DNA from: an uncultured Gemmataceae bacterium
GTDB lineage: Bacteria > Planctomycetota > Planctomycetia > Gemmatales > Gemmataceae
Reading direction: 5' to 3'
NCBI GenBank assembly: GCA_963804745.1
Contig: CAWDRY010000012.1
Location: 30,562 to 94,561 of the forward strand
DNA length: 64,000 nt
The translations under genes were made by a program, and so were the position numbers. The notes beneath the pieces were generated by a model. It made no database searches. It was not told the origin of the DNA and saw only the letters and a list, made by a program, of their open reading frames with translations. This document shows, in pieces, positions 6,594-43,611 of this stretch (within the stretch, counting starts at the first letter, position 1; every line of letters begins with the position of its first letter).

Positions 6594-6700
6594 GGCGAGC
6601 GGCAGAAGATAATTTAGCATCCCTCGCTCACGCTTCTGGCCAGTGTGACACTGGCCCGAAGCGTGAGCGAGGGATGGTATCACTTGCCGCTCGCCTAATG
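6594..6700. repeat. palindromic MITE/REP-like element, copy C (Y-left, X-right; inverted relative to A/B), immediately 3' of the giant gene
   Basis: ggcgagcggcagaagataatttagcatccctcgctcacgcttctggccagtgtgacactggcccgaagcgtgagcgagggatggtatcacttgccgctcgcctaatg. Confidence 0.85.
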
Positions 6701-24049: not shown

Positions 24050-26045
24050 GTCCCCGGCCGTAAATAACCGTCCAACAGGGATCGATGGCAGGTGGAAATA
24101 GGGGTAGGGAGCCTGCCTCCGGCAGGCTCCCGAGTCGATCAGGATGGGGTCGTGGGGCACAACCCGGCGTCGACGGGTTTCGGGGCGACCGAACTGCGCA
24201 GGCGTTCGCGTTCCTGAGGTGTCATGTTCCAGGGCAGGTAGCATTGCGGCTCGGGCGGCGGCCGGCCCCCAGCTTTCGCACAGTCCGACAGGTAGGCCGT
24301 GAGCCATTTGGCAACGTCCATGTCCCAAAGCTGAACCGTTTGAAACAGCGAGAACAGCATGGCTGCCAAGCGTCCGCTCCACAACGATCCCGAGCCGTAG
24401 AAGTTCTTGCGGGCAATCACCGGGCCGCGCTGCCGGCGCTCGGCTTCGTTATTGTCCATCGGCACTTCGGGATGATCCACAAACACTGTCAGGCCGGTCC
24501 AGTGTTCTTTCAGGCTGTTGAGCGCTTTGCGTTGCGGGGGCCGCAACTTCGGTTGCGTCAATTCCTCGTCACAACGCTGCCGCATGTGTTCCACTTGTTG
24601 ACGCACGAATTGGTCAGCCTCGGCATAGGCGGTGGCGTTGGCGGTGACGGCCAGGCGCTGGTCATTGAGCTGGTACAAAGTGCCGATGGCTTCAACCCAT
24701 GACCAGGCCCAGTCGGTCAGCTCCGACCAACCGGTCAGCACCTCGAGGAAGTCGCGGCGCACATGGGCCCAGCAAAACGACAGGATGATTTTCCCCGCCT
24801 TGACCTGGGCCATGGCCTTGTAGGCGCTGTAGCGATCGACGTTCATGATGCCTTTGGCACCGTCGCCCAAGTGTCCTTCGGGAACCTCGTGGGAACGCGT
24901 TGGATCGAGCACGAACACGACCGACTCTGGGGCGGCGAAGACCCAGAGCTGCCACACGAAATTGGCTTTGTTCGGCTGCTTGACGAAGATGGGCCAGCGG
25001 GTTTCGTCGCCATGCCAATGGTTTTCGCCGCGATTGTGTTCGGCGAGGAGTACGTAGAGCGGCTCAAAGAGCGGCACGAGTTTATGCAGGCCGTCGGTGA
25101 TGGTGCCGGCGGCCAAATCAAGCCCATAGCTGCGTAATTCGGCGAGGACACGGTACAGCGGCTGGAAGAATTCGAACTTGTGCTGCAGGATCAGCACCCA
25201 GATGGAAATGCCGATGGCGCTTTTGCGAATGAGTTTGTCGGGTGGCGGAGCCGTGACCACAAGCGGTTGCTTGGGGCAGTTGCAGCGCCGGCGATAACGG
25301 CGGCGCTGATAGCGGCGGCGATGGGCACGCACTTCAATTTCGAGGATGTTGCCGTCGGTGGTGCCGGCAATCTCCTCAAACGGTTGGCCGCAAGCGGGAC
25401 AACATTTTTGCTCGTCGGGCAATGAGCAGTCTTCATGGCTGGTGGGCAGATGATCGTGCTGGCGTCGGCCGTGGCCTTGGCTGCCGCGCTGTTGGCCGCG
25501 TGGCCGCCGCTGCTGGTTGGTAGGCGCGGTCTTACCCTGCGCCGGCTTCGTCGCAGATGAGGTTTCGGATTTGCGGCCGAAGAGCCGACGTTTCAACTCG
25601 CGGATTTCGCCTTGCAGCAGTTGGTTCTGTTCCGCCAACGCCACTTCGCGCTGCCGGGCGCGTTGATGTTGGGCCTGCCAATAGTTGGCCTGCCAACGCA
25701 GATCGACGAGTTGCCGCCGCAAACGGTAGACGGTCACCAGAGCGAGCAAAAAGAGCCAAGCGAGCATACAAAAACGCTGCCACAACCAGGCCGCCGGGTC
25801 AGGTTGCGAATCTTCCTGGAAGTCGGCGTCGAGGACGATGGCCGGGGAGGCCGGAACCAGCACTCCTTGCTGAGCCGGAAGAGGAACCAGAGGATAGAAA
25901 GCGTTGGCATCCATGCTCCTCAATCGTAGGCAGCCAACCAGCCGCGGATTCAGCGAATGTCAAAAAAACCGCGGATCAAGGCAATAAACCAGGCAAACTT
26001 TACGCCCAGCGGACCCCGTTGGTCGAATGTTTACCCCCGGCCCGA
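24050..26045 (-). mobile_element. IS66-family insertion sequence (single-ORF ISBst12-like organisation, no tnpA/tnpB)
   Basis: imperfect terminal IRs ccggccgtaaataaccgtccaacagggatcg (24054-24084) vs rc of cggaccccgttggtcgaatgtttacccccgg (26010-26040); internal TnpC. Confidence 0.7.
24139..25923 (-). CDS. tnpC: IS66 family transposase TnpC
   Basis: N-terminal leucine zipper/coiled coil, CPACG zinc finger, DDE core (HGDETRWP...), C-terminal NNEAERRQRGPVIARKNFYGSGS. Confidence 0.85.
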   Translation of the reverse strand: MRSMDANAFYPLVPLPAQQGVLVPASPAIVLDADFQEDSQPDPAAWLWQRFCMLAWLFLLALVTVYRLRRQLVDLRWQANYWQAQHQRARQREVALAEQNQLLQGEIRELKRRLFGRKSETSSATKPAQGKTAPTNQQRRPRGQQRGSQGHGRRQHDHLPTSHEDCSLPDEQKCCPACGQPFEEIAGTTDGNILEIEVRAHRRRYQRRRYRRRCNCPKQPLVVTAPPPDKLIRKSAIGISIWVLILQHKFEFFQPLYRVLAELRSYGLDLAAGTITDGLHKLVPLFEPLYVLLAEHNRGENHWHGDETRWPIFVKQPNKANFVWQLWVFAAPESVVFVLDPTRSHEVPEGHLGDGAKGIMNVDRYSAYKAMAQVKAGKIILSFCWAHVRRDFLEVLTGWSELTDWAWSWVEAIGTLYQLNDQRLAVTANATAYAEADQFVRQQVEHMRQRCDEELTQPKLRPPQRKALNSLKEHWTGLTVFVDHPEVPMDNNEAERRQRGPVIARKNFYGSGSLWSGRLAAMLFSLFQTVQLWDMDVAKWLTAYLSDCAKAGGRPPPEPQCYLPWNMTPQERERLRSSVAPKPVDAGLCPTTPS

Positions 26046-26280: not shown

Positions 26281-27539
26281 ATGAAAGGCATTCCCATGGA
26301 CCCCATCACCATCCGTTACACCTTCCGTCCACGCCAGCGCAGCCTGGCAACCGGCCGGGTTGCCGACCTGTTCGGCGTCGATTTCGACGAGCCGCCGCAT
26401 CTTGTTGCCGACAACGTGCTACTCGACATCCGGCCCGGCGATCTCGTGCTGTTCACCGGCCCGTCCGGCAGCGGCAAATCATCGCTGCTCCGCGCCGCCG
26501 GCAAGCAACTCGGCGCCTTCGACGCCGCCTCTCTCTCCTTGCCGGACCTGCCGCTCGTCGATTGCCTGTCCGGCTCGCTGGAAGAACGGCTCGCCAAACT
26601 CTCGGCATGCGGTCTTTCCGAAGCCCGCCTGCTCCTGCGCAGCCCCGACGAACTCTCCGACGGCCAACGCTACCGTTTCCGCCTCGCCTACGCCCTGGAC
26701 CAACTGCCCACTGCCCACTGCCAACTCCCCACTGACCACTCCCCACTCACCACTCCTCACTTCCTGATGGCCGACGAGTTTGCCGCCTTTCTGGACCGCA
26801 CTCTGGCAAAGGTCCTGGCCTTCAATGTCCGCAAGTTGTGCTCGCGCAGCGGTGTCAGTTTCCTGCTGGCGACCACGCACGACGATCTGCTCGACGACCT
26901 CAATCCCGACGTGTGCGTGTACTGCCACGGCGACGGGCAGGTGGCATGTCAGCGGCGCGACGTAAAAAAAAAGACATCTCGTTTGTGCATGACCTTTGGC
27001 TGTCGGAAGGCGCCCGCGCCGATTGGCCGTACTTCGCTCGGTGGCATTACCGCAGCCATCAGCTCGCCTACGTCCGCCGGATCGTCCTGCTCTGGCACGG
27101 CGACGAGCCGATCGGCATCTGCGTCTTTAGCGCCGGCGGCGGCGCTGAAACTGCGGACTCGCTATTTTGGTCTTCACAATCCCCATTCGAGCCTGCACCT
27201 CTCGGCCCTCAATCGGCAACTCTGGCTGCTGTTGCGCGTCGTCCTGCATCCCACCTATCGCGGTGCGGGGATTGCGACGGCCTTTGTGCGGCGGGCGTGT
27301 GCGACGTGTCCGGTGGACTGGATCGAGACGCTGTCGGCGATGGGGCAGGTCAATCCTTTCTTCGAGCGCACGGCTTTACGCGCGTCGGCGTCATTCGCAG
27401 AGAGCGAAAGAATAACCGGGGCCGGTCGTATGGCGCGATCTACGGCGGGCACGATGTGCGTGTCAGCGCCGAGACGGTCCGGAAGAGCCGGTACAGCGAG
27501 CCGGTGTATTATGTGATGGATAATCGGCAGAAAGGATGA
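26281..27539 (+). CDS. soluble ABC-type ATPase domain fused to C-terminal GNAT-like acetyltransferase domain; frame broken at least three times (A9 run at 26964-26972, ~27150, ~27370)
   Basis: Walker A GPSGSGKSS, signature LSDGQRYRFRLAYAL, Walker B LMADEFAAFLD, H-loop LATTHD; GNAT motif A RVVLHPTYRGAGIATAFVRRA and motif B NPFFERAGFTRVG in alternating frames; embedded heptamer SSR 26700-26760. Confidence 0.55.
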
Positions 27540-27712
27540 AGGATGAAGGATGAAGGATGAATCGGAAAGGATGAGCGGTCACTGGCCCGAAGCGTTACCG
27601 AGGCAGGATTTACCCTCGCTAACGCTTCGGGCCAGTGTTCAAACTCGTTCCCACGGTCCGCCGTGGGAACGAGAGGAAGTCTTCATCTCATCCTTCATCC
27701 TTCATCCTTTCT
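27520..27712. repeat. composite palindrome between convergent genes: outer (GGATGAA)n/(TTCATCC)n arms, inner rearranged MITE core hairpin (cactggcccgaagcg...cgcttcgggccagtg) plus 13-bp-stem hairpin ctcgttcccacgg/ccgtgggaacgag
   Basis: read directly at 27530-27715. Confidence 0.75.
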
Positions 27713-28121
27713 TAAGAAGCTCTAACACTGGAACAACGTTGACAGTACCGAACTGGCGGAAGTGATCGTCGAAAGCAAACGCACATTGGATGCCAAGGCG
27801 ATCCATGACTACCCGGCTGACACAGTCGGTGAAACTCCACTTCTTATCGTGAAACCGGCGGAACACCTGCCAGGCAGCTCGGACGTCCGCCGTCGAGATC
27901 CATTCGAGACGAGAGATCGATTCGTCCAGAAGATTTTCGCCGATATGGAAAGCGCGGGAGAACTCACGCCGCATCTTGAGAAGCGTCAGCAACTCGTCCA
28001 GGACGTAATCGGTCGTCAATAGCTGTTCTGAATTTTGGGTCAACCAGGTGTGGGCTGCAAGATGATTGGGATCGTTGGGCACAAAGGCTGCAAACCACGC
28101 ACTTGTATCAACAAAGATCAC
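27702..28121 (-). CDS. vapC: type II toxin VapC (PIN domain)
   Basis: IFVDTSAWFA..., TDYVLDEL, SFTDCVS, AFDDHF PIN acidic residues. Confidence 0.85.
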   Translation of the reverse strand: MIFVDTSAWFAAFVPNDPNHLAAHTWLTQNSEQLLTTDYVLDELLTLLKMRREFSRAFHIGENLLDESISRLEWISTADVRAAWQVFRRFHDKKWSFTDCVSRVVMDRLGIQCAFAFDDHFRQFGTVNVVPVLELLKKG

Positions 28122-28562: not shown

Positions 28563-28955
28563 ATGGACTCCGCTTCTCCCGAACGTCCGCAACCGACTGT
28601 GCTGGTTGTGGAAGACGACGAATTGATTCGCGACGGACTGGCAGCAGTTCTCGTTCACGCCGGATACCTCGTATTGACAGCCGGTACGGGCCACGATGCT
28701 ATCGGTCTGCTGCGCACGCCGCTATCTCCCGTCGACATCCTTTTGCTGGATGTTCAGTTGCCCGACGTCAACGGCGTCGATCTGTGTACACGGATGCGGG
28801 AGATTTTCCCCAAGCTCCCCGTCGTCGTTTGCAGCGGCGATACCAGTTCCGGGGAAAGGGCGGCGCTGCGGAAACTCGGTATTCAGGGGTTCCTTCAGAA
28901 GCCGGTGGACATGGAACAAGTAATCGCCGCGTTGGCGAAAGCTTTGTCACACTAA
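28563..28955 (+). CDS. single-domain response regulator (CheY-like receiver)
   Basis: VLVVEDDELIRD, phospho-acceptor D in ILLLDVQLPDVNG, conserved T and K (GFLQKP). Confidence 0.85.
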   Translation: MDSASPERPQPTVLVVEDDELIRDGLAAVLVHAGYLVLTAGTGHDAIGLLRTPLSPVDILLLDVQLPDVNGVDLCTRMREIFPKLPVVVCSGDTSSGERAALRKLGIQGFLQKPVDMEQVIAALAKALSH

Positions 28956-28968
28956 CCCGACTTGAAAG

Positions 28969-29081
28969 TGGTGAGTGGTGAGTGGTGAGTGGTGAGTGGT
29001 GAGTGGTGAGTGGTCCAAATGGTTACCACTCACCACTCACCTACTCACCACTCACTCCTCTTCTCCACTCACCACTAACTC
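28969..29081. repeat. heptamer-repeat palindrome HPR-1: (GGTGAGT)6-ggtccaaatggttacc-(ACTCACC-like)6, 14 nt after response-regulator stop
   Basis: read directly. Confidence 0.85.
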
Positions 29082-29109
29082 CGTACTGATTTGCTGAAAG
29101 AGCCTGACG

Positions 29110-29763
29110 ATGAATCCCATTCGCATCCTGCTTGTCGAGGATCATCACCTGGTCAGGGCGGGGATTCGCTCCTTGCTCCTGGGGGTGGCCGGCGTCCAGG
29201 TTGTCGGCGAGACGGGGGACGGGAGGGAGGCGCTGCGCTTGATTGCCGAGGTGCGCCCCAATGTGGTGTTGATGGACATTGCCTTGCCCGGACTCAACGG
29301 TCTGGAAGCGACCGCGCGGGCCGTCAAGGATTTTCCGAATGTCCGCGTGATCATGCTGTCGATGAACCGCGCTGAAGAGTACGTCCTGCGGGCGCTGCGC
29401 TGCGGCGCTGCCGGCTACCTGCTCAAGGACAACACTCCCGTCGAGCTGGAGCAGGCCATCAGAGTGGTTGCGCGCGGCGAAACCTATCTCAGTCCCGATG
29501 TCTCGAAGCACGTGATCGCGGCGTATGTCCAACGCCGTGACAGCAAGCCGACTTCTCTGGAGCGGCTAACACCCCGCCAGCGCGAAGTTCTGCAGCTCAT
29601 CGCGGAAGGACGTTCTACCAAGGAAATTGCCAAGACCCTCGCCATCAGCATCAAAACGGTGGAAATGCACCGCCAGCAATTGCGCGAGGCCCTCGACATC
29701 CACGACACCGCCAGCCTGGTGCGCGATGCGCTGCGCATGGGGGTGGTGTCCGCGGACAAGTGA
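29110..29763 (+). CDS. NarL/FixJ-family response regulator (REC + LuxR-type HTH)
   Basis: ILLVEDHHLVRAG, VVLMDIALPGLNG, C-terminal LTPRQREVLQLIAEGRSTKEIAKTLAISIKTVEMHRQQL. Confidence 0.9.
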   Translation: MNPIRILLVEDHHLVRAGIRSLLLGVAGVQVVGETGDGREALRLIAEVRPNVVLMDIALPGLNGLEATARAVKDFPNVRVIMLSMNRAEEYVLRALRCGAAGYLLKDNTPVELEQAIRVVARGETYLSPDVSKHVIAAYVQRRDSKPTSLERLTPRQREVLQLIAEGRSTKEIAKTLAISIKTVEMHRQQLREALDIHDTASLVRDALRMGVVSADK

Positions 29764-30453
29764 CGGGGTTTGGTGATTGAACCCACATGATTTGACAGGC
29801 GAACCAGGCAGCGTGAACTGCCGGGTGATGGAATTGGCGACTCCCCTTCTTGCGCCGGTCGTTGAATTCCCCGGCCTTGTGCCGGGGATGGTATTGTGCG
29901 GCTGACACGGGCATGGATCGAGGGTGTCGTGAGGCGCAGACCATTCGCCACGCCGGATGCCAGAATGGCGTGACTGATCGTCGTTGGCACGGTGCCGATC
30001 CTGATTGCCGGGGTCGCTCTCAAGGATTACGTCGAGGGACCGTTGCGCTCCCTCTATGTGATCGCGGCGGCCGCCATCGTGCTCGCGCTGGTTATCATGG
30101 TGGCGGAAGGATTGGTGCGCTGGCGGCAGCGAACACGGCGACTGCCACGCGACATGGACCATCTGATCCACGTCCGAGCCTGAAGCGTCAGCGAAGAGTG
30201 CTGAGCGCTATACATCCGAACACAAAGCCTCAAACCCCGTTCGTGGTCTGGCGCAAAGAAATCGCACCGACCCACGAATTACATTGCGCGGACTACCCGG
30301 TCGCAAACACGGTTCGTTCCATATAATTGACAAAGGCAACACGGGCTGTGCATCTTTCGTCGTTACCGTCACCGATTCTTTCGGAAATAGATTGACGACC
30401 GCCCTTTGCGAAAGGATCATGGGGAAACCGCATCCCTGGAAGGGCAATCGGTC

Positions 30454-31056
30454 ATGGACACCATCTTCTGGATTTGTGCCGTTGTCGGCGGGACGCTGCT
30501 GGTTTGCCAGTTTCTCCTGAGTTTCCTGGGGATTGGCGAACACCAGGACGTCGACGGTCATGACGTCCATGCCGGCGTTGGGCATGATGTGTCTCATCAC
30601 GATGCCGAGCACGAGCAAAGCGAATCCTGGTTCTTCAGCGTCTTGACCTTCCGTACCGTCGTGGCCGCCGTCACCGTTTTTGGACTGGCTGGCCTGGCCG
30701 CGTCTGCGGGGCAAGTCGAACAGCCGATCAGGCTCGTGATTGCACTGGCCGGCGGGGGTGGAGCCATGTTCATGGTGGCCGGCCTCATGCGGCTGATGAT
30801 GAGACTCAAATCCGATGGAACGGTCCGCGTGGAACGCGCGGTTGGCAAGACCGGCACCGTCTACCTCACGATCCCCGGACAGAAGGCCGGCGCAGGCAAA
30901 GTTACCTTGAACTTGCAAAACCGTACCGTGGAATACCAGGCCGTCACTTCCGATCAGGAGCTGCCCACCGGAGCCAAAGTCGTCATTGTCGCGGTGGTCT
31001 GCTCGGATACCGTCGAAGTCGCCCCGGCACAAGTTTCAGTAATGAGTAATGAGTGA
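30454..31056 (+). CDS. NfeD/YqiJ-family membrane protein (flotillin-associated)
   Basis: N-terminal TM helices MDTIFWICAVVGGTLLVCQFLLSFLG, C-terminal OB-fold GKTGTVYLTIPGQKAGAGKVTLNLQNRTVEYQAV; immediately upstream of flotillin. Confidence 0.7.
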   Translation: MDTIFWICAVVGGTLLVCQFLLSFLGIGEHQDVDGHDVHAGVGHDVSHHDAEHEQSESWFFSVLTFRTVVAAVTVFGLAGLAASAGQVEQPIRLVIALAGGGGAMFMVAGLMRLMMRLKSDGTVRVERAVGKTGTVYLTIPGQKAGAGKVTLNLQNRTVEYQAVTSDQELPTGAKVVIVAVVCSDTVEVAPAQVSVMSNE

Positions 31057-31152
31057 TGAGTGGAGAAGAAGAGTGAGTGGTGAGTAGGTGAGTGGTGAGT
31101 GGGTACCATTTGGACCACTAACCACTAACCACTAACCACTCACCACTTTGGA
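31038..31152. repeat. heptamer-repeat palindrome HPR-2 (same family as HPR-1 in opposite orientation), begins within last codons of nfeD-like gene
   Basis: agtaatgagtaatgagtgatgagtgg...gagtgggtaccatttggaccac(taaccac)n. Confidence 0.85.
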
Positions 31153-31163
31153 AAGGGCTAACA

Positions 31164-32837
31164 ATGTTTAACGCTTCTCTCCTGGCACAGGCGCCTAACG
31201 CGGGACCATTCCCCGACATCTATTTCTGGACGGCAGGCATCGTCGCGATCACCGCCATCGTCTTCCTCAGCTCGATTATGTTCCTGGTCAAACGCTACAG
31301 GCGTTGCCCCAGCAACCGCGTGCTTGTCATCTTCGGCAAGGTACGCGGCGGCGACGCGGCCAAATGTATTCACGGCGGCGCCGCCTTCGTTCTGCCGCTC
31401 ATCCAGGACCATGCCTATCTCAACCTGGAGCCGATCCAGATCGAGATTCCGCTCAAGGGCGCCCTGTCCATCGAGAACATCCGCGTCAACGTGCCCAGCG
31501 TCTTCACCGTGGCCATAGGAACTGAAATGGAAGTCATGCAGAATGCTGCGATTCGCCTCCTGGGCCTGAACAGCGAGGAGATTCAGGAGCAGGTCGAGCA
31601 CATCATCTTCGGCCAGCTCCGCCAGGTCATCGCCTCGATGCGCATCGAAGACATCAACCGGCACCGCGAGCAATTCCTGCACAAAATACAGGAATCGCTG
31701 GAGCCGGAGTTGCGCAAGATCGGCATGGTGCTCATCAACGTCAACATCACCGACGTGACCGACGAGTCCGGGTATATTGAAGCCATTGGCCGCAAGGCCG
31801 CTTCCCAAGCCGTGCAGCAGGCCAAGGTCGATGTGGCCCAGCAGGAAAAGATGGGGCAGATCGGCATTGCCGAGGCTGAACGCGAAAAGGCCATCCAGGT
31901 CGCCAACGCCGGCAAGCTCCGCGAGATCGGCACCCGCGAGGCCATGCGCGAGCAAGCCGTCCGCATCGCGCAACTGGAAAAGGAACAGAAGATCGGCGAG
32001 CAGACCGCTGGCTTCGAGCGTGAGGCTCAGGTCAAAGATGCTGAACGGCAGATGCGTATTGCCACCGCCGGTTTCAACGCCAAGGCCGTGGCCGGCGAAG
32101 CCGAATCTCAGGCCGAAATCGCTCTTGCCCAGGCCAATTTGCAAGTGAAACAGGCTGAAGCATTCCGGCTCGGTGAGACCCGCAAGCGCGAGGCCGAAGC
32201 CGCTGTGCAGGAAGCACAGAACCGGGCCATGGCCAAGGCCGCCCTGGCCCAGGCGGAACGTGTCGAGGCCGAGAAGCGGGCCGCCGTGGAAGCTCCTGCA
32301 AAGGCCGAAAAGGCCCGCGTCATCGTTGAGGCCGAGGCCGAGGCCGAGAAGCGCCGCATTGAGGCGGAAGGCCAGGCGAAAGCCATCTTCGCCAAGCTCG
32401 AAGCCGAGGCCAACGGCCAGTACGAGATTCTGGCCAAGAAGGGCGAAGGTCTCAAGAGAATCATCGACGCCTGCGGCGGCGCGCCGCAAGCGTTCCAACT
32501 GCTCATGTTGGAACACCTCGATACGCTGGCCCAGACGGCGTCGCAAGCCATCGCCAACATCAAGTTCGACAAGGTCGTCGTCTGGGAAGGCGGCAGCAAC
32601 GCCAACGGCACCACCAACACGGCACACTTCCTGCAAAACATGGCCCGGTTCATGCCGCCCATGATGCAGGTCATGAAGGACATCGGCGGCGTCGAGATGC
32701 CGGAATACCTGGCCAGGCTGTCGCCGGAAAGCAAAACGGACGGCGCCCCTGCGCCGGTTTCTCCCGTGGCCTCCGTCCGGCCTGAACCCATGCAGGAGAA
32801 GCCCGCCCCGGCGAAGGCGCCGGCGCCAAAAGTATGA
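31164..32837 (+). CDS. floT: flotillin (SPFH/band-7 domain protein with Glu/Ala-rich coiled-coil repeats)
   Basis: N-terminal TM, SPFH core, AEAEAEKRRIEAEGQAKA repeats, Ala/Pro-rich tail. Confidence 0.85.
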   Translation: MFNASLLAQAPNAGPFPDIYFWTAGIVAITAIVFLSSIMFLVKRYRRCPSNRVLVIFGKVRGGDAAKCIHGGAAFVLPLIQDHAYLNLEPIQIEIPLKGALSIENIRVNVPSVFTVAIGTEMEVMQNAAIRLLGLNSEEIQEQVEHIIFGQLRQVIASMRIEDINRHREQFLHKIQESLEPELRKIGMVLINVNITDVTDESGYIEAIGRKAASQAVQQAKVDVAQQEKMGQIGIAEAEREKAIQVANAGKLREIGTREAMREQAVRIAQLEKEQKIGEQTAGFEREAQVKDAERQMRIATAGFNAKAVAGEAESQAEIALAQANLQVKQAEAFRLGETRKREAEAAVQEAQNRAMAKAALAQAERVEAEKRAAVEAPAKAEKARVIVEAEAEAEKRRIEAEGQAKAIFAKLEAEANGQYEILAKKGEGLKRIIDACGGAPQAFQLLMLEHLDTLAQTASQAIANIKFDKVVVWEGGSNANGTTNTAHFLQNMARFMPPMMQVMKDIGGVEMPEYLARLSPESKTDGAPAPVSPVASVRPEPMQEKPAPAKAPAPKV

Positions 32838-32893
32838 TCCAATCACCGTGCCGAAAAGGTGTCAGCTAGCATGATGGCGCTCACGGTGGCGAC

Positions 32894-33193
32894 TCATTTG
32901 GTTTTCCCAGGATTTGTCGGAGAAGCCTGCGAAATGAACGCTCGGATGAGCAGCGGGGCTGAGGCACCGACGTTAACGGCGAGAATTGGTTTAAGGGGAA
33001 TATCTGATTCGAGGTAGACGATGACAAGTACCCCGCCCGCGCAGATCATGAGAATCGTGAGAAACCAATAAAACCATGACTTGAACCAATCTGGCAGATC
33101 ATCGGGTGACTGCCGTCGGAGTTCAAAGAGGCCCACCAATTCCGCCAACAATCCGCCAAGAACACCAAAGAGGAACCCTGCGGGCAAGCTCAT
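32894..33193 (-). CDS. small hypothetical membrane protein (2-3 TM)
   Basis: hydrophobic segments; operonic with 33212..33508. Confidence 0.4.
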   Translation of the reverse strand: MSLPAGFLFGVLGGLLAELVGLFELRRQSPDDLPDWFKSWFYWFLTILMICAGGVLVIVYLESDIPLKPILAVNVGASAPLLIRAFISQASPTNPGKTK

Positions 33194-33211
33194 GTCCCCT
33201 CCTTTCAGAGA

Positions 33212-33508
33212 TTACCGGAAGGACTTGGCCAGCACCGCACGCATGAAAGCAAGCGCTTCCTGAACTGTTGTCGGTCGATCCTTCAGAGTGAACAACTTAC
33301 GGCCTTGCACATCTGGTACCAGGGCTTTGCGAACAAGATCAGAGTGTTTGTCCAGAACGTTCGCAACCTCGGATTCAGAGAGACGCGTATCTTCTGCAAT
33401 TCCGGAAATGGTTCGGAAGTCCCATTCAGGATTAGCAAGCGCCGCGAACACCTCTCGTTCCTTCGGATCAGTGATCCGATCTTCCCATGTCATTGTTGCA
33501 GTTGCCAT
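33212..33508 (-). CDS. hypothetical small cytoplasmic protein downstream of rpoN
   Basis: 98-aa ORF, no recognised motif. Confidence 0.4.
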   Translation of the reverse strand: MATATMTWEDRITDPKEREVFAALANPEWDFRTISGIAEDTRLSESEVANVLDKHSDLVRKALVPDVQGRKLFTLKDRPTTVQEALAFMRAVLAKSFR

Positions 33509-33535
33509 CGCTGTCCTCCCTGTGATGTCGTTGTT

Positions 33536-35037
33536 CTACTCCGTCCAGTCCTTCCGCTGCCTTGACGAAGGGATGTTCAGCATCTTGCGATATTTGGTCA
33601 CGGTTCGCCGCGCCAACGGATAGCCCGTGTCGTGCAGCTTGTTGACCAGGTCCTCGTCGGAGAGCGGGGCGGCCTTGTCTTCTTTCTCGATGATTTCCAA
33701 CAACTTCTGCTTGATCGTCTCCCAGGCGACTTCCTCTCCCGTCGCGGTATGCGTGCCGCCGCCGAAGAAACGCTTGAGGGGGAAGATGCCGCGCGGCGTC
33801 TGCACCCATTTGTCGTCCACCGCCCGGCTGACCGTGGTGACGTGGACGCCGACCTGGTCGGCAATCTGCTGCATCTTGAGCGGCTCGATGAACTCCGGCC
33901 CCTTGTCGAGAAAGCACCGCTGGTGCTGGATGATCGCCCGCGTAACCTTCTCCAGGGTGCCGCGCCGCTGCTCGATGGACTCCAGGAGCCACTGGGCCGC
34001 CTGAATCTTGCGTTTGAAGTATTCCTTGTCCTTGGGGCTGGTGTTCTTGTCGCGGTACAGCTCCAGATAGCGCCGGCTGATGTAGATGTTGGGCACCCAG
34101 TCGTCGACCAGACGGACCGTGTACTCACCGGTTTCGGCTCTGTCGACGATGATGTCCGGGACCACGTAGGGAATGTTTTCGGCGCTGAAGCGGGCGCCCG
34201 GCTTCGGGTTGAGATGCCGCAGCGCTTCAATGGCCGTCTTGATGACCGTCAGATCGAAGCCGGTCCGCCGCTGGATCACGGGCAGGCGGTTGTGCTGAAT
34301 GTCTTCGAGATGGTTGAGAATGAGCACGCGCAGCACGTCGCGGTGCAGCGTTTCCGGGGTCAACTGCAAAAGCAGACACTCGCTCAAATCGCGGCGCCGA
34401 CTCCTGGAGGATCGAGCTTTTGGACGATCCGCAGAGATTCCTCAATCTGCTCGCTGGTGACCGGCTGCTCGAAGCTCCTGGCCAGATCCTCGCTCCTGGC
34501 CAGTTCCTCCAGAGAAGTTCGCAGGTAGCCGTTATCGTCAATGGAAGCGATCAGGTAGCGTAACAGCTTGAGCTGATCCGGCTTGAAATCGAGAAATGTA
34601 AGCTGGTCGTTCAGGTAATCCTGTAACGACTGAGGCCGTGAAGCCATGTTCTGCATGGCGTCGTGCTTCTTGTCGCCCTCTTCGTCCATGCCGTTGCGCG
34701 ACGGGCGGTGCTCTTCGTTGAAGTGATCTTCCCAATCCTTGCTCATGGCCTCCAGCCGGTCGAAGTCCAGCTCGTTGGCGCCGGTCTCCTCGATGATCAG
34801 CTCCGTGTTGTCGGGGTCGCTGGTTTCTTCGACCTCCGCGGCCGGGGCCTCCCCCTCTTCCTCCGACGTCTCGGAGCTTTCCTTCAATTCCAGCACAGGG
34901 TTCTCTTGCAGCTCCTGCTCAATGCGCTCTTGCAACGCCATGATGGGCAGTTGCAGGATTTCCATCGATTGAATCATCCGCGGAGCCAGAATCATCCTCT
35001 GGTCCATCCGCTGTGTCATCGTCGTGTCAAGTCGCAT
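33536..35037 (-). CDS. rpoN: RNA polymerase sigma-54 factor; one frameshift at ~34385 (missing C in CC/CCC run)
   Basis: region I LAPRMIQSMEILQLPIMALQERIEQELQENP, acidic region II, HTH and RpoN box ARRTVTKYR in downstream ORF. Confidence 0.9.
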
Positions 35038-35071
35038 GGCCTACATACCCTGTGACTGAATTCCTTGATAC

Positions 35072-35680
35072 TCAGAATGCCCGCCGCCCTTCGAGAGCGT
35101 CGGCCAACATTTGGCTGTTGGCAAATTCTAGCACCGAACCTGACGGCACACCACGCGCCAGCCGCGTGATCCGCACTCCCGTGGGCGCCAGCAGATTGGA
35201 AAGGTACAGCGCCGTGCCGTCGCCTTCCAACGTCGGATTGGTCGCCATGATCACTTCCTGCACGCCGCCCTGCCGGACACGCTGCAAGAGCGCCTCGATT
35301 GTCAACTGCTCCGGACCGACATTGTCCAGCGGAGCCAGACGCCCGTGCAGCACGTGGTACAGACCGCGGTAATTCCCGGCCCGCTCCAGTGCGGTCAGGT
35401 CGCGGGGCTGCTCGACCACACAGACCAGCGACGGATCGCGCCGGGCGTCCCCGCACAGATTGCACAGATCGTTTTCTGTAAGGTTGAAGCACTGCCGGCA
35501 CTGCCGTACTTCGTCCTTGACCGCTCGCAAGGCCTCCGCCAGCGCCAGGACCACCTCACGATCCGCCGCCAGCAGGTAGTGCGTCAAGCGTTCCGCCGTC
35601 TTGGGTCCGATACCCGGCAGCTTGCTCAACTCCAGAACAAGACGGGCAATGGCTCCTGCCGGCTCTATGTCCACGTTCAT
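35072..35680 (-). CDS. recR: recombination protein RecR
   Basis: HhH LSKLPGIGPKTAERL, C4 zinc finger CRQC...CNLC, Toprim VVEQPRD. Confidence 0.9.
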   Translation of the reverse strand: MNVDIEPAGAIARLVLELSKLPGIGPKTAERLTHYLLAADREVVLALAEALRAVKDEVRQCRQCFNLTENDLCNLCGDARRDPSLVCVVEQPRDLTALERAGNYRGLYHVLHGRLAPLDNVGPEQLTIEALLQRVRQGGVQEVIMATNPTLEGDGTALYLSNLLAPTGVRITRLARGVPSGSVLEFANSQMLADALEGRRAF

Positions 35681-35825
35681 CTGCTCCGTAGGTTAGGCTT
35701 TCCAGCCTGACCCAGCGTAACTGTACCCTCGCTTGCGCGTTCGGGCTAGTGTCCTATCGTTAGCCCGACTGCGCAAGCGAGGGTAAACTAACTGCTGCCG
35801 CTCGCCTTAGCGCTGTCGTCTTAGC

Positions 35826-36179
35826 TCACTCGCCGGGTTCTCCATCTCCCGGCGAACTTAGCCCCGGCATGAGATTGAACCCCGATGTGACCTTGCTCGT
35901 CTCCTCGGCCATCAACTGCCGGGCACGCTCCAGCGCCTGATTGACGGCGGAACGGATCAGGTCTTCGAGCATTTCCAGGTCGTTCATCCGGAAAGCTTCT
36001 TCACTGATTCGGCACGAGACAACCTCGAGCCGGCCGTTGACCCGGGCGCGGACCATGCCGCCGCCCGCGTCGCCTTCAGCGTAAATCTGACCCAAACGCT
36101 GCTGGAGACGCTCCATTTCCTCGCGGATTTTCGGCAACTGCCGCATCAGGCCGGCGATCTGTCCCAACTCTTTAAGCAT
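35826..36179 (-). CDS. ybaB: YbaB/EbfC nucleoid-associated protein
   Basis: ~115 aa, GGGMVRARVNGRLEVVSCRISEE typical of DUF149. Confidence 0.85.
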   Translation of the reverse strand: MLKELGQIAGLMRQLPKIREEMERLQQRLGQIYAEGDAGGGMVRARVNGRLEVVSCRISEEAFRMNDLEMLEDLIRSAVNQALERARQLMAEETSKVTSGFNLMPGLSSPGDGEPGE

Positions 36180-36182
36180 AGG

Positions 36183-38005
36183 TCACGCTTCCTCGGCATT
36201 TACCGTCGCGGCTCGGTCCTCGGATTGTCCGGAAACGGCTGCAAAACCTTCATCCACCCGGTCGCGGATAAAGCGCGCTCCCAGCACTTCCATGGCCCTT
36301 TGAATCAACGGTTCCTTTTCCGCCTCGCTCAGGGGCTGTCGTTGCCTTGCCGGGGCCGCCGCCGGATGCTCAACGGCCGGGGCCGGCGAGTCTTGGCCCA
36401 GGATCCTATTCGCTTCAATCCGGAGCTGACACGCAGGGCCGGCCACTCGACGCAGAGTTTCCATCATTCGTGCTAGACGTTCCGGCTCCTCGCAGTACTT
36501 ACGTTCCGAATTATACTGAGGTGGGAAACGCAATACTAGTGTGTTTGGCGCAGTAATTGCAGGGAGACCAGCTCTACCGAGATGGCTAGCAATGATTGTG
36601 CCGACTTGAGCGAGAACTTGCTGCCAAATCGCGGACAAAGTCTCCGGGGATAGGCTCACCGGCGCCGGGGGGGAACTGGGGCTAGCGGCCTCTCGTTCCT
36701 TTTTTTTTATGTGCTCGGCCAGAGTTGCCGGACGGGGTGATGGGGTGCCAGGAACAGAACGACTGTCCGCTGAAGCCGTTCCGCCGGCATTTCCTGCTTT
36801 ACCCTTAGGATCGGCAGACCCGGCACTTCCTGACCTGTCAAGCCATTCGGCCAGTTGCGCCAGCGGAACCAGATCGTCGAGACGAGCCAGTCGAACGAGG
36901 GCCATTTCCACCAGGACGCGGCCATGCGCGCTGCCGCGCATCCGCGCCTTGGCGCTGGCCAGGATGTCGAGGCCAGCCAGGACCGTGTCCGGCTTCAGGG
37001 AAGCGGCCTGCTTGACGAGCGCATCTCGATACCGGGAGGTTACGCTCAATTCTTGGTTCTCTGCGCCGCACAATTCACCACCATCAAATCTCGCCAGTAC
37101 TCGATCAGTTGATCGAGCAATTCACCAAGCTGCAACCCCTGGTGCGCCGCCTCTCCCAACAGTTCCAGCGCTTTCCGCGCATCGTGCTCCAGCACTGCGG
37201 TTGCCAGACTGGTGACGCGCTCGTCGTTGGCCGTGCCCAGCAACTGATGGACCTGATCGACCGTTAACTTCTCGTTGCCGAAAGCCAGCAACTGGTCGAG
37301 GAGCGACTGCGAGTCGCGCATCGATCCGCCGGCGCGCCTGGCCACCAGAGCAAGGGCCTCGTCGTCGGCCTCCATCCCCTCGTTCGCTACGATCTCGCGC
37401 AACCGTTCCACAATGGCCTGCGTGCCGATGCCGGCAAAATCGAAGCGCTGACAACGCGACAGGATCGTCACCGGGATCTTCTGTGCCTCGGTGGTGGCAA
37501 AGATGAACTTGACATGGGATGGCGGCTCCTCAAGCGTCTTGAGCAAGGCGTTGAAGGCCGGGGGCGTGAGCATGTGGACTTCGTCGATAATGTATATCTT
37601 GTAACGTCCGCGGCTGGGCCGGTACTGAACATTGCTGCGAATCTCACGAACCTCGTCGATGCCCCGATTGCTGGCGCCGTCGATCTCGAGCACGTCCACA
37701 TCCTCGCCGGTGGCAATGCTGCGACAGGCGTCGCAGACGCCACAGGGAGTCGCCGTGGGTCCCTTGACGCAGTTGAGCGCCTTGGCCAGGATGCGTGCCG
37801 TTGAGGTCTTACCGACGCCGCGAGCACCGGTGAACAGGTAGGCATGGGCGACACGATTGCTCTTCAGAGCGTTGATCAGGGCACGGGCGACCGGTTCCTG
37901 GCCAACGAGATCGCTAAACTGCTGCGGCCGATAACGCCGCGCCAGCACGGTGTATTCTTCCGGCGGTTTGGGATTGTCACTCTTGGATTTTCGACTGGTT
38001 GCCAT
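36183..38005 (-). CDS. dnaX: DNA polymerase III subunit gamma/tau; frameshift at ~37050-37070
   Basis: GARGVGKTS Walker A, CGVCDACR zinc module, IIDEVHML Walker B, SRCQRF sensor; domains IV-V continue in ORF 36183..37073. Confidence 0.9.
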
Positions 38006-38037
38006 ATCCCTGTTGTCCTTGCCTTGATGCGAATCAG

Positions 38038-38128
38038 CAATCGAAAATCGTCAGAAGCTCAGAGGTCAGAAATCACAGGTCGCCCTGCAGGTTGCCTTCT
38101 GCCTTCTGACCTCTGCCTTCTGATCTCT
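38038..38128. promoter_or_regulatory. imperfect palindrome built on GACCTCT/AGAGGTCAG heptamers upstream of dnaX
   Basis: tcagaagctcagaggtcagaa ... ttctgacctctgccttctga. Confidence 0.5.
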
Positions 38129-38278
38129 GCGAAAAAAACGCCCGCGGCAAGTCGCTGAGAGAGGCTGATCCACGCCACTCGGTCCGTTGTTTATGGCTGC
38201 ACCTTCCGGCCTGACCAGGTTCACAACTTTCCTCTGGGTGGGTCCCCTCCCCGTTTCTCACCGCGGGCAATATTCATC

Positions 38279-38363
38279 TGGTGAGTGGTGAGTGGTGAGT
38301 GGTGAGTGGTCCACAAGTTCCTCACCTACTCACCACTCACCTACTCACCACTCACTTACTCAC
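38279..38363. repeat. heptamer-repeat palindrome HPR-3, overlapping last 3 codons/stop of the cyclophilin gene
   Basis: ggtgagtggtgagtggtgagtggtgagtggtccacaagttcctcacctactcaccactcacctactcaccactcacttactcac. Confidence 0.85.
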
Positions 38364-39319
38364 AATCGTCACCTTGCGAATAACAGCCGGTTTGAGCGGG
38401 CGGCCATCCTGGTCCGGATCGTTGTCGTCGCGGCGCACAGGCTGCCGAAATATCTTATGGGCAACGTCCATCCCCTGCGTGACCTTGCCGAACACCGTGT
38501 AGGCTCCGTTGAAGAACGACATCTTGCACAGAGTAATATAGAACCTACAGGCCGCGCTGTCATCCTCCCTCCAGCGGCAGGCGCCGATTACGCCCTCCTC
38601 GTGGTCCACACTCACATTGAATTCCGACTTCATCCAGTAGCCGATGGAGCCGTGTCCGGCCTCGCCCGTGCCGAGCGGGCAACCTCCTTCAAGCTTTTCA
38701 ATGGCCAGCTTGTTGCCCTCCTCGTCTTCCAGCACGTCATGCACGGCGCGTTCAAAGACCAGACCGTCGTAGTAACCGGCCTTGGCCAGTGCCACGAAGT
38801 TGCGCACTTGATTCGGCGCCCAGTCCGGCGCAAGGCGATCTCAATGTTCCCCTGATCGGTTTCCAGCGTTGCCGTGTAGGTCAGCGGCTTGCCGTCATCG
38901 TTAACGAAACGGATCGTGTCCCACATCTGTTCCACATCAGTGTAGAGCTTGCCGACCGATTTGCCCGTCAGCGTGGTGTCCGGCGGACGCTGGAAGTCGG
39001 GAGAATCGGACGGAGGCTCCTGAATAGTAGCTTCCTTGAACGGCTGGTGCATGCGTGGATCGCCCAGCCTGGCAGAATCGCCAGGTTTTCCCTGGTTCGC
39101 AGGATTGGGCGTCTTGTCAGCCGCCTCAGGTTCCTGCTTGTGCCGGACGCAGCCAGCCGAAAAGGAGACAAGGAAAAGGAGCGACAAGGACACAAGGAGA
39201 CAGAAAAGCGCAATTACTTTCCGTGTCTCCGTGTCTCCTTGTCTCCTTGTCTCCTTCTGAAACCTTGCCCAACCCCACGTTTTCCCGCAAGCTTCCATGC
39301 CTCTTATCCTCCCGAGCAA
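38352..39319 (-). CDS. ppiB: cyclophilin-type peptidyl-prolyl cis-trans isomerase, lipoprotein; frameshift ~38815 (missing C); start uncertain
   Basis: signal/lipobox LFLVSFSAGC, KPLTYTATLETDQGNIEIAL then (frame change) PDWAPNQVRNFVALAKAGYYDG...AACRFYITL...YTVFGKVTQGMDVAHKI. Confidence 0.75.
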
Positions 39320-39510
39320 TCGTTCCCACGGCCGACCGTGAAAACGAGAGAAATATAGGCCGCTGATCCTAGTCTAGCGCACCGGAAGCGTCAATTGAGA
39401 TTCCCCGGAACCAGCAGTGCGACCAGTTCAGTTCCTTGAATCTCATTATTCCCCGCCCACCCCAACGTCACCAACGCCGTACAAACCGCCGGATCAACCG
39501 CCATAATCAC

Positions 39511-39614
39511 CTGCTCATACGTTGGCGAGCGGCGGGGTTCACCCCCGCCGTGCGTTGCCGGCGAGCGGCGGGCTTCACCCCCGCCGTGCGTTGCCGGCGA
39601 GCGGCGGGCTTCAC
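39511..39614. repeat. 36-bp tandem repeat x3, each unit a 7-bp-stem hairpin (cggcggg-cttcacc-cccgccg), followed by short CATCAGTCC-like repeats; in a >700-bp apparently noncoding region
   Basis: gttgccggcgagcggcgggcttcacccccgccgtgc repeated. Confidence 0.8.
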
Positions 39615-40094
39615 CCCCGCCGTGTTTCCCATCAGTCCCATCGCTCCCATCAGTCCCATCTCCCTCCACCCAATACCGCACCCACTCCCCCCGAATCGGC
39701 ACATCCTCCTCCGGAATACACACCAGCCGATACGCCCGCGCAGTTGGTGTCCATTGTGGGCCAGCCAGAAAGGCGTGACAAGAAACGCGGCCCCAGCGTA
39801 ACCCCGGACGCCGGGCCAGCTCGCGGAGAAACAGTTCCGCGGCCAGCGACCGTAACATATACAGGCGTATAGTCAAGGTCGGTAGAATAAGAGACAAAAG
39901 CACTCGTGTCAGGGTTTGAAGCTCCCGGCCACGGTCTGATTTGCATAACTGGTTGCTGAGATAAGCATTACGGAAAATGAGGGTGCTGTAAAATGGCCGT
40001 TTTGCTGGCCAAATGTGGCCGCGCCAAACGGCCATTCTTGGCCCCTGCTCTCGGTCTTCTTCTTTGTGCTCTTTGTGTCTTTGTGTTGAAAAAT

Positions 40095-41412: not shown

Positions 41413-41819
41413 GAACTCTGGAGATTCTTGCTTGCCTACGCACTCACGGTGTTGATCGAAACGCCGATTCTGCTGATCGGTCTATCGGCCCGACACTCGC
41501 TCGCGCGGCGCTGTTCGCCGGCGTTTGGCTGAATGCCTGTTCTTATCCAATTGTCTGGCTGGTGCTGCCAACCCTGATAGACGCCAATGACTCGAGGGCC
41601 GTCTACCTGGCAGTTGCGGAAACCTTCGCGCCGGTGTCGGAATGCGCCCTGTTTTGGCTTGCCTTCGGTCAGCGCGATCAGTGGGGCCGCTGGTCGATGT
41701 GGCGCAACCTGTGTACAATCGTGCTGGCCAACCTGGCATCGTTCGGAGCAGGAGTAGTCCTGTACAGGTTTGAGTGGTTAAAATGAGCCTGGCGGCAATA
41801 GTGTTCGGCACAGTGCATG

Positions 41820-42050
41820 CTGGAATGCCACGGCCTTGAGCCGTGGAGGTTCACGTTGGTTTCTACATCGACAAGGCCCGTTTGCTGGGATGCCACGGCC
41901 TTGAGCCGTGGAGGTTCACGTTGGTTTCTATCTGTAGACGACCAACCTAACCATCCACGGGGCAAGCCCGTGGGATTCGATTCCTGGGGCGGGGAGGGTT
42001 GTAGAAACCAACCTAACCAACCACGGGGCAAGCCCGTGGGATTGAAGCAT
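41820..42050. promoter_or_regulatory. array of four hairpins (2x ccacggccttgagccgtgg units, 2x ccacggggcaagcccgtgg units) plus gttggtttctac/gtagaaaccaac inverted repeat in 5' region of oxidoreductase gene
   Basis: read directly. Confidence 0.6.
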
Positions 42051-42117
42051 TCTTCGTGCCGAACGCTATTGCACAAACTCTCGGTTTTTCCGTTCACAAT
42101 GCACAAAGGAGACATTC

Positions 42118-43523: not shown

Positions 43524-43611
43524 AAACTGTGGAAAGAGTGAGTGGTGAGTGGTGAGTGGTGTGAGGGAAGGAAGGTTTGTGTGGGGCAGCAGAAGCGATG
43601 AGTGATGAGTA

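Follow-up and report, generated by a model that had tools for sequence, protein, structure and literature searches.

Tandem repeats with a seven-nucleotide unit are over-represented in bacterial genomes, and replication slippage has been proposed to account for them (Mrazek 2007, as cited in PMC4679880 and PMC4692102). In Xanthomonas (GGGAATC) and Nostoc (GGGGAYT), heptamers of unknown function are about 90% intergenic, lie on average 28 nucleotides (nt) from the upstream open reading frame (ORF) versus 160 nt from the downstream one, are mostly located between co-directional genes, vary in length among related strains and form 70–75 convergent pairs in each genome, where the 5′ array is G-rich whichever strand is read (Rehm et al. 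2015, PMC4692102). These inverted repeats are the closest precedent for the elements described here, which are located in a 64,000-nt stretch of DNA from an uncultured Gemmataceae bacterium (Planctomycetota; contig CAWDRY010000012.1, positions 30,562 to 94,561; hereafter the window). The window harbours three palindromes, E1 to E3, each made of a GGTGAGT array, a core and an ACTCACC arm, and one half element, E4 (Table 1). Whole elements of this type, arms and core together, have been copied to new sites without target duplication, and their arms differ between strains by the gain or loss of 7-nt units, the pattern expected of replication slippage; the polarity of the arms, with the G-rich arm 5′, and their position at stop codons are fixed. 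With moderate confidence, we read them as a dispersed, non-coding hairpin family similar to REPINs (hairpin-forming doublets of REPs, repetitive extragenic palindromic sequences) or to MITEs (miniature inverted-repeat transposable elements), with slippage-prone heptamer arms and a family-specific core, tolerated just behind stop codons.

Like the Xanthomonas and Nostoc repeats, the window elements are 7-nt tandem, convergent and intergenic, and they are nearer to the end of the upstream ORF. As opposed to these repeats, they are hosted by a soil planctomycete, with the GGTGAGT unit present in many soil phyla; GGTGAGT contains a stop in each of the three frames and frequently donates the stop of the gene; and the family possesses its own cores, is copied between sites and displays presence/absence polymorphism. 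A further difference is that the window units lack a G3-4 tract, so that the G-quadruplex is not an obvious property: GGTGAGT, AAGGATG and CAGAGGT contain GG at most, short of the G-tract of three or more for a G-quadruplex. G-quadruplex formation has been demonstrated for GGGAATC and GGGGAYT repeats (Rehm et al., PMC4692102), and the G-rich arm does have a GG run every 7 nt. Nevertheless, a G-quadruplex or another non-B DNA motif is a most improbable explanation of the family, since GGTGAGT, with runs of only two G, would yield no more than weak structures of two tetrads, the complementary arm offers a competing 30–45-bp duplex, and units without GG (GAATTAT, AATTGAC) form equivalent palindromes. 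Short tandemly repeated repetitive (STRR) sequences of cyanobacteria (Mazel 1990) and the TAACTGA repeats of Beggiatoaceae (MacGregor 2015, PMC4679880) are also tandem heptamers and mostly intergenic. Repeats of this type are patchy over cyanobacteria, Bacteroidetes and some proteobacteria, suggesting horizontal spread (PMC4679880), and the GGTGAGT elements have such a patchy cross-phylum distribution in common with them. In contrast, TAACTGA repeats are direct arrays just upstream of starts, with one inverted case in 170 sets (PMC4679880), whereas GGTGAGT elements are inverted pairs downstream of stops. A dimer of either heptamer, GGTGAGT or ACTCACC, was not found in the searchable literature.

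E1 to E4 are located as stated in the original prediction, which had been made from the sequence of the window. E1 reads AGT(GGTGAGT)6, GGTCCAAATGGTTACC, ACTCACC ACTCACC T ACTCACC ACTCAC TCCTCTTCTCC ACTCACC ACTAAC, and its boundaries are exact because a sister strain, L236, has the empty site. E2 harbours the core of E1 and its irregular tail ACTCACCACTCACCTACTCACCACTCACTCYTCTTCTCCACTCA and is partly decayed, with GGTTAGT units; its reverse complement can be aligned with E1 along the core, GGTCCAAATGGT, and along the tail, ACTCACCACTCACCTACTCACCACTCACTC[C/T]TCTTCTCCACTCA, which is non-periodic. The irregular ACTCACCACTCACCTACTCACCACTCAC stretch is also present in E3, whose arms comprise 4.6 and 5.6 heptamer units, and no complementary arm accompanies E4. 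Tandem repeats were evaluated from a TRF table and an exact-period count. Perfect arrays of at least three copies number eight in the window at period 7, as compared to zero to two for each other period from 4 to 12. The 21-mer (GGTGAGT)3, with at most three mismatches, gave 17 matches in the window and none in 100 shuffles; a chance origin of the window GGTGAGT arrays is excluded. Palindromes built on other heptamers, AAGGATG and GACCTCT, were expected from the original prediction and were found together with two more, one on AGAGGAT and one with an 8-nt unit (Table 1). The 127-nt centre of the AAGGATG palindrome contains two more hairpins (27580–27637 and 27645–27674). The G-rich units (GGTGA, AAGGA, GAGGT, AAGGAG) resemble Shine-Dalgarno sequences and the C-rich units the 3′ tail of 16S rRNA, a resemblance that may be mere purine/pyrimidine composition.

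Flotillin homologues of named source belong to Gemmataceae or Gemmatales and are 70–74% identical to the flotillin of the window. A metagenome contig of the European Nucleotide Archive (ENA; assembly ERZ25039512), the sister strain L236, encodes a 99%-identical flotillin and is syntenic with the window at about 96–97% nucleotide identity. E1 is missing in L236, where the flanks meet as CTTGAA/TCCGTACTGA in a 41-nt spacer, with no duplicated base, no ambiguous base and no heptamer seed at the empty site. (A 'TACTGA' end shared by E1 and E2 was rejected as part of the element: it belongs to the flanking DNA and is present at the empty site.) A second site is filled in L236 only, by a GGTCAGA/TCTGACC palindrome that directly follows TTC TGA G, 1 nt past the recR stop; this site is empty in the window, in a recR-rpoN spacer of 34 nt. 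This insertion shows only a 5-nt TCTGA microhomology, itself part of the repeat unit. At a third site, the boundaries of E3, GGGCAATATTC and AATCGTCACC, enclose in L236 another hairpin element, 135 nt long, with a central palindrome CACTGGCCCGAAGCGTTAGCGAGG / CCTCGCTAACGCTTCGGGCCAGTG. The C-terminus of cyclophilin is ...RKVTI-VSK in the window versus ...RKVTI-RSVEVGKE in L236, so that both tails and both stops are element-derived.

Repeat numbers differ between the two strains in E2 and in the GACCTCT and AAGGATG palindromes. E2 is present in both, with the unit number differing at three places. In L236 the nfeD-like gene has its stop in the first TGAGTAA unit, at the TGA (GCT TGA GTA ATG); in the window this first-unit stop is mutated, and the ORF is five codons longer, terminating at the array's next in-frame TGA. 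In L236 the GACCTCT palindrome has one arm enlarged to about 11 units and the other shortened, and the AAGGATG palindrome is kept with one additional unit in its right arm. E2 is found in neither of two relatives with about 80% flotillin identity: the nfeD-like and flotillin genes overlap in one (L237) and are separated by 43 nt in the other (L238). In a distant, syntenic contig (L240), the ppiase-dnaX region is devoid of heptamers and cyclophilin ends as ...KTVTIQTP. Elements are thus gained or seamlessly lost, replaced and resized over very short evolutionary time. By parsimony, and from the near-perfect, hence young, arms of E1, the event at this site was probably a gain.

The core and tail of E1 and E2 are confined to this lineage among all sequences fetched, and the irregularities that the two elements share rule out independent slippage as their origin. 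The unit itself, which the original prediction had suspected of being a genome-wide phenomenon, extends beyond this genome. We found (GGTGAGT)3 in at least 115 stretches of species-representative genomes, with hosts among the matches listed in Gemmataceae, Pirellulaceae, Thermoguttaceae, Chitinophagales, Flammeovirgaceae, Acidobacteriota, cyanobacteria, Gemmatimonadales, Chloroflexota and one Xanthomonas (taxon counts are samples, not totals). It was also found in 45 viral or proviral contigs of IMG/VR (L241–L285), one of which, IMGVR_UViG_3300037883_000109, bears four separate arrays. Many genome and metagenome matches are palindromes made of a G-rich arm, a core and a C-rich arm. At least 120 metagenome contigs contain the irregular 28-mer, and a subfamily with an identical 21-nt core, GGTCGCAAGCGATnTCTTACC, occurs in at least 10 different flanking contexts in soil metagenomes. 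Local simple-sequence expansion, with slippage at each site, palindromes arising by template switching and no movement, would be compatible with the heptamer over-representation and slippage cited above (Mrazek 2007, via PMC4679880 and PMC4692102), with the variation of unit numbers between strains and with the many units that adopt one architecture. However, E1 and E2 have a non-repetitive core and an irregular 40-nt tail in common, the empty E1 site offers no seed, the 21-nt core recurs at unrelated sites, and the 28-mer is spread over at least 120 contigs. As the sole explanation, local expansion is already contradicted, and we regard it as hardly likely. In some cases palindromes are nested, with GGTGAGT/ACTCACC in the centre of GATGGTT/AACCATC or CAGAGAT/GACCTCT (L205, about 705–905; L118, 4–146), which suggests either that elements inserted into hairpin loops or that the unit changed symmetrically as the palindrome grew.

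Two further observations concern the surroundings of the arrays. The motif GCGGGCGCGAAACGTAAAC is located about 30–60 nt from ACTCACC arrays in the unrelated soil contigs L117, L119, L122, L134, L142, L201, L226 and L230; the window lacks this motif, for which Rfam has no matching family. The window also contains a second dispersed family of palindromes, about 100 nt long and with arms of 32 nt, TACCATCCCTCGCTCACGCTTCGGGCCAGTGT / ACACTGGCCCGAAGCGTGAGCGAGGGATGGTA, at 5063–5160, 5330–5430, 6600–6700 and 62215–62320, with a variant at 35717–35792. With the order swapped, the arm sequence of this family makes up the centre of the AAGGATG palindrome (27580–27637), of the L236 element that replaces E3, and of a hairpin found only in L236 after the flotillin stop (L236, about 6780–6840).

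The polarity of the arms was analysed in 102 palindromes from the window and fetched loci of many phyla, obtained by pairing period-7 arrays with reverse-complementary units; the loci had been selected for GGTGAGT-type arrays, blind to genes and polarity. The 5′ arm contains more G than C in 97 of the 102, less in four and as much in one. Among the 21 palindromes with units unrelated to GGTGAGT, the 5′ arm is G-rich in 16, C-rich in four and neutral in one. All window palindromes are convergent, with the G-rich strand 5′ on both strands. This polarity is a real choice between two architectures, because a palindrome reads identically on both strands. De novo addition at breaks, in which a polymerase or reverse transcriptase adds G-rich heptamers to both 3′ ends that are then joined, is alone among the models in making the 97:4 polarity obligatory, and it predicts seamless flanks and varied cores. 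Cores common to several sites, in E1/E2 and in the GGTCGCAAGCGAT subfamily, argue instead for whole-element copying, and no candidate enzyme was identified; we know of no heptamer-adding activity at breaks in bacteria. We consider such an origin very improbable.

Placement relative to genes was determined with a rough gene caller that relies on amino-acid composition; it finds the Pfam-verified genes close to the elements and misses some others. The distance from the 3′ end of the gene to the element has a median of 2 nt (interquartile range −4 to +7, n = 71), whereas gene starts are widely scattered. For co-directional pairs with a clean start, the stop lies at a median of 2 nt and the start at a median of 27 nt, with 15 of 19 pairs in this direction (Wilcoxon p = 0.0007). 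An ORF that enters the G-rich arm must end there, and negative distances are therefore partly definitional; the stop-proximal bias persists among arrays beginning at or past the stop. Of the solitary arrays beside a stop, 80 have their G-rich strand in sense orientation, versus 13 that do not. All three stops are in use at the 73 junctions, the commonest being the TGA of the first GG TGA GT unit, and no spacer or target motif between stop codon and array start is shared by these junctions. Intragenic arrays expose the C-rich strand or are frame-preserving 15- or 21-nt composites (28 versus 5). Adjacency to stops is thus a statistical property, not a random placement, and the elements recur in other genomes.

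The same holds in the window, where the original prediction had set all four elements at stop codons. E1 is located 11 nt after the TAA of the upstream response regulator (28953–28955) and 30 nt before the ATG of the next one. The stop of the nfeD-like gene (31054–31056) lies within E2, which ends 16 nt before the flotillin ATG, and the cyclophilin stop (38352–38354, minus strand) lies within E3, which encodes the last residues, VSK, and the stop. The E4 array begins 14 nt after the oxidoreductase stop (43521–43523). The first unit of the AAGGATG palindrome provides the TGA stop of the ABC-type gene (...NRQKG; frame of ORF 26838–27539). In the nfeD-like, ppiase and ABC-type genes, the stop codon is thus supplied by the element.

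The elements share several features with REPINs and with REP sequences arranged in bacterial interspersed mosaic elements (REP-BIME): both are extragenic inverted doublets of about 100 nt that can form a hairpin in single-stranded DNA (ssDNA) or mRNA, multi-copy and non-autonomous, with a fixed doublet polarity, and REPIN singlets decay (Bertels and Rainey 2011, PMC3116915). Unlike REPINs, their arms are tandem heptamers, not palindromic in themselves, instead of a 20–40-nt REP with a GTAG or CGTC head, and neither head is present. They are tied to stop codons whereas REPINs are random in extragenic space, and no REP-associated tyrosine transposase (RAYT) was found among the protein families recurring near arrays at 235 loci. 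MITEs and palindromic elements derived from IS200/IS605 insertion sequences (palindrome-associated transposable elements, PATEs) are likewise small, non-coding and dispersed, with a terminal inverted structure. Classical MITEs produce target-site duplications, in contrast to the E1 site, where there is none, and IS200/IS605-type elements insert and excise seamlessly, with no target duplication. Neither a parent insertion sequence (IS) nor a conserved target tetra- or pentanucleotide was found for the window elements.

If the elements are a dispersed hairpin family, they would be transcribed within operon mRNAs as very stable intercistronic hairpins of 30–45 bp; E1 and E2 in particular are probably transcribed through, because the 30 and 16 nt that separate them from the next ATG leave no room for a promoter. 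New copies would persist only near the stop in short spacers, where the upstream protein and the downstream ribosome-binding site or promoter are unharmed. Stop adjacency could in part reflect this constraint, because spacers of 30–40 nt offer no other safe place. Insertion onto the stop itself would cost few C-terminal residues, since (GGTGAGT)n contains TGA in all three frames per 21 nt. On the contrary, (ACTCACC)n is open in all three frames and free of G, and this difference between the arms accounts for the intragenic bias to the C-rich strand and frame-preserving composites, as well as for the over-extension of starts into the C-rich arm by ORF callers. Stop codons alone cannot explain the polarity, because the stop-free GGGAATC arrays of Xanthomonas are also convergent (PMC4692102). 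With the reverse polarity, an open, G-free and C-rich tract, resembling a Rho-loading site, would be exposed right after ribosome release and might be counter-selected, whereas with the observed polarity the C-rich tract would be paired as soon as it is made. Avoidance of Rho is the account of the polarity that we would prefer, as a conjecture. REPs stabilise upstream mRNA segments, and the effect on the host would most likely be, by analogy, a REP-like barrier to 3′-5′ exonucleases with segmental mRNA stabilisation, or else neutral. Copying might be achieved by a single-strand HUH/Y1 transposase (of the RAYT or IS200/IS605 type), an enzyme that would give seamless insertions and perhaps excisions such as those inferred here, or by capture of excised hairpin DNA in break repair.

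The palindromes were predicted to fold as very stable RNA hairpins, with −88.1 kcal/mol for E1 (z −11.9), −45 for E2 (z −3.5) and −56 for E3 (z −9.3). Six of the seven palindromes were folded, the 184-nt AAGGATG one being excluded, and range from −41 to −88 kcal/mol (z −2.8 to −11.9). As anticipated in the original prediction, these long stems are devoid of a U-tract: a consensus terminator scan and inspection of the flanks revealed none directly 3′ of the hairpins of the elements, and their classification as intrinsic (Rho-independent) terminators was rejected on this basis. Classification in an Rfam family was rejected as well, with no match in the window at gathering score; in a more permissive scan, E1 and E3 had only sub-threshold matches to microRNA (miRNA) precursors, which correspond to generic long hairpins.

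The hairpins could alternatively be functional 3′-end or intercistronic RNA structures kept by selection at each site, a possible but doubtful explanation. Roles that may be considered are a U-tract-independent terminator or attenuator, a determinant of processing or stability, a regulator of termination-reinitiation, or the stalling of terminating ribosomes. Stalling reportedly occurs at E. coli REPs that lie no more than about 15 nt from a stop codon, an observation attributed to Liang and Deutscher. The very stable predicted folds, the precise placement at stops across phyla and the strict polarity are in line with such roles, and canonical intrinsic terminators are not enriched in the region (21 found versus 16.8 expected), so that another 3′-end structure could be useful. 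However, the elements are short-lived, being polymorphic at 96–97% identity and gone at about 80% protein identity. The E2 arms have diverged without compensation, with three ACTAACC units opposite GGTGAGT, and the hairpin is less stable (−45 kcal/mol, as compared to −88 for E1). Finally, E1 and E2 are so close to the next ATG inside operons that efficient termination would silence the downstream genes, and the terminator role envisaged in the original prediction is unlikely. We therefore rate selfish or neutral elements with incidental REP-like effects above a selected RNA element, because E2 has decayed uncompensated and elements come and go. Selection on individual hairpins looks weak.

Several points weigh against a dispersed hairpin family. 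No mobilising enzyme was detected among the protein families that recur near arrays (235 loci), which are histidine kinases, ABC transporters, proteases and similar large housekeeping families, with no transposase. The existence of many unrelated heptamer units with the same architecture hints at a generic mechanism and makes a sequence-specific transposase awkward. Purifying selection only partly explains the very tight adjacency to stops, and the steps of Rho avoidance and mRNA stabilisation are conjectural. E1 may have been lost from L236 instead of gained in the window. Two filled/empty pairs and one replaced site do not allow a target rule to be derived. The window and L236 are probably long-read assemblies, and single-unit count differences carry some uncertainty, whereas the strain differences of 113 nt, about 80 nt and 135 nt are independent of this consensus-error caveat.

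A more far-reaching possibility, which we think rather unlikely, is that the elements represent an unrecognised, cross-phylum class of mobile DNA, made of hairpins with simple-sequence arms that insert seamlessly within a few nucleotides of stops with an obligatory G-rich-5′ polarity. If so, the class would span Planctomycetota, Bacteroidota, Acidobacteriota, Cyanobacteria and Xanthomonas, together with their viruses, and would require an as yet undescribed mechanism of mobilisation or repair. Insertion at ssDNA or R-loops where the ribosome releases the transcript, or templated addition of heptamers at breaks, would be candidates, and the polarity might be shaped by avoidance of Rho loading.

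Table 1. Heptamer elements, coding repeats and neighbouring genes of the window (positions are counted from its first nucleotide)
Feature	Position	Strand	Description
E1	28967–29079	+	113 nt; (GGTGAGT)6.9, core GGTCCAAATGGTTACC, irregular ACTCACC arm
E2	31038–31147	−	E1 homologue as reverse complement; 4–5 units per arm
E3	38276–38363	+	88 nt; (GGTGAGT)4.6, GGTCCACAAGTTCC, 15-nt super-repeat (ACTCACCACTCACCT)2.9
E4	43535–43561	+	half element; lone G-rich array (GTGAGTG)3.4, array from 43538
AAGGATG/CATCCTT palindrome	27529–27712	n/a	184 nt; 127-nt centre
AGAGGAT/ATCCTCT palindrome	6921–7006		near 3′ end of giant minus-strand gene; −56.8 kcal/mol, z −8.1
CAGAGGT/GACCTCT palindrome	~38047–38130		downstream of the signal recognition particle (SRP) RNA gene and its T-run
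8-mer palindrome AAGGAGAC / GTCTCCTT	39159–39256		same architecture; −59.1 kcal/mol, z −7.8
(VSGGV)n coding repeat	7302–7365	−	GGTGAGT-derived, 15-nt period; loop of cohesin-type domain, giant gene
EVRGQRS coding repeat	7607–7658	−	perfect (AGGTCAG)7.4, encodes EVRGQRSEVRGQRSEV
QWSVVSGQWP coding repeat	9702–9740	−	(TCAGTGG)n in Ig-like domain; second copy 19930–19963
LPTAHCQLPT... coding repeat	26700–26761	+	C-rich heptamer-derived, 21-nt period, LPTAHCQLPTDHSPLTTPH; ABC-type gene
ABC-type gene	26281–27539		Pfam; split
Response regulator 1	28563–28955		Pfam Response_reg
Response regulator 2	29110–29763		Pfam Response_reg
Flotillin	31164–32837		Pfam Band_7
dnaX	37046–38005	−	Pfam; frameshift-separated from 36183–37073
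SRP (4.5S) RNA gene, probable	38155–38250	−	RF00169, 36.2 bits versus gathering score 40
Cyclophilin (ppiase)	38352–38807	−	Pfam
GFO/IDH/MocA oxidoreductase	42118–43523		Pfam; split

In-frame use of the same heptamers as coding repeats, proposed for the giant gene and the ABC-type gene, was found in both, and the GGTCAGT-related QWSVVSGQWP inserts are indeed present in Ig domains; the coding repeat related to the GACCTCT palindrome was likewise recovered (Table 1). Coding arrays stay in frame via 15- or 21-nt periods or via their total length, whereas intergenic elements follow stops. The C-rich coding repeat of the ABC-type gene differs between strains. The giant cohesin/Ig gene (6706–21630) is represented by six overlapping ORFs. 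At 11714–19104 it includes a segment of about 3.1 kb that is present three times in tandem, nearly unchanged (from about 11714, 14824 and 17933), each copy being composed of 72–78-nt repeats of the beta-helix type. In an Ig-domain loop of this gene (9620–9650, minus strand), an inverted repeat CCCCTCTCCC AG GGGGAGAGGGG lies beside a GGGTGAG x3.3 array, exactly at the frame break between ORFs 9444–11630 and 8168–9676; it could be an inactivating or phase-varying insertion of an element, or a sequencing error. Other repeats of the window are a 21-nt repeat x14.9 (GCAGGTAAAGCGAGCGGCGAG, 97% matches) at 56303–56615, inside ORF 55031–57421, and a 36-nt repeat x2.8 (98% matches) at 39524–39624, in or beside ORF 39391–40035. 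Just upstream of the oxidoreductase gene (41795–42072) are two 73-nt inverted arms, 78% complementary and separated by 132 nt, with TGAGCCGTGGAGGTTCACGTTGGTTTCTA directly duplicated internally.

Among the neighbouring genes named in the original prediction, Pfam matches support the pair of response regulators, flotillin, ppiase, dnaX and an ABC-type gene, and the nfeD-like ORF has no Pfam match. E3 is not simply located between ppiase and dnaX, because the probable SRP RNA gene lies between E3 and dnaX. This gene, which belongs to the context and stands outside the repeat family, matches RF00169 over its full length, with the conserved GGUCAGGCCGGAAGG core, and is located upstream of dnaX-ybaB-recR. 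The order on the minus strand is cyclophilin, E3, SRP RNA, T-run, GACCTCT palindrome and dnaX; 33 nt separate the palindrome from the dnaX ATG. About 25 nt lie between the end of E3 and the 5′ end of the SRP RNA gene downstream, so that the −35 region of any ffs promoter would be inside E3, or inside the other element in L236. A PIN-domain gene (27702–28121, minus strand) abuts the AAGGATG palindrome, and an IS66-family transposase gene (24139–25923, minus strand) is the sole IS in the window. Between response regulator 2 and the nfeD-like gene, a 537-nt segment (29760–30296) is replaced by 30 nt in L236; it bears a fragment of a membrane-protein-like ORF (29850–30326) with no Pfam match.

Frameshift-split genes are found at 36183–38005 (dnaX), 42118–43523 (oxidoreductase), 26281–27539 (ABC-type), 38352–39319 (cyclophilin) and 6706–21630 (giant gene). 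L236 splits the same genes differently, which suggests long-read indel errors rather than biology; in the case of dnaX, programmed frameshifting may occur. Such frameshifts, in the window and in L236, are typical of long-read consensus errors and would be the argument for considering the elements themselves as an assembly or sequencing artefact. We give practically no credence to this explanation, as the elements are present in many independent assemblies from several phyla, including short-read metagenome-assembled genomes (MAGs) and isolate genomes.

Heptamer over-representation has been documented from 2007 on, and the inverted repeats close to ORFs from 2015 on. The window and its sister strain add direct evidence that whole units are copied and turned over between near-identical strains, together with two quantifiable rules, arm polarity and stop adjacency, that are binding on any mechanism. 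The annotation of planctomycete and soil MAGs is affected by these elements, through rewritten C-termini and stops, over-extended starts and the coding loops of giant surface proteins. The natural filled and empty alleles provide a test bed for effects on transcripts.

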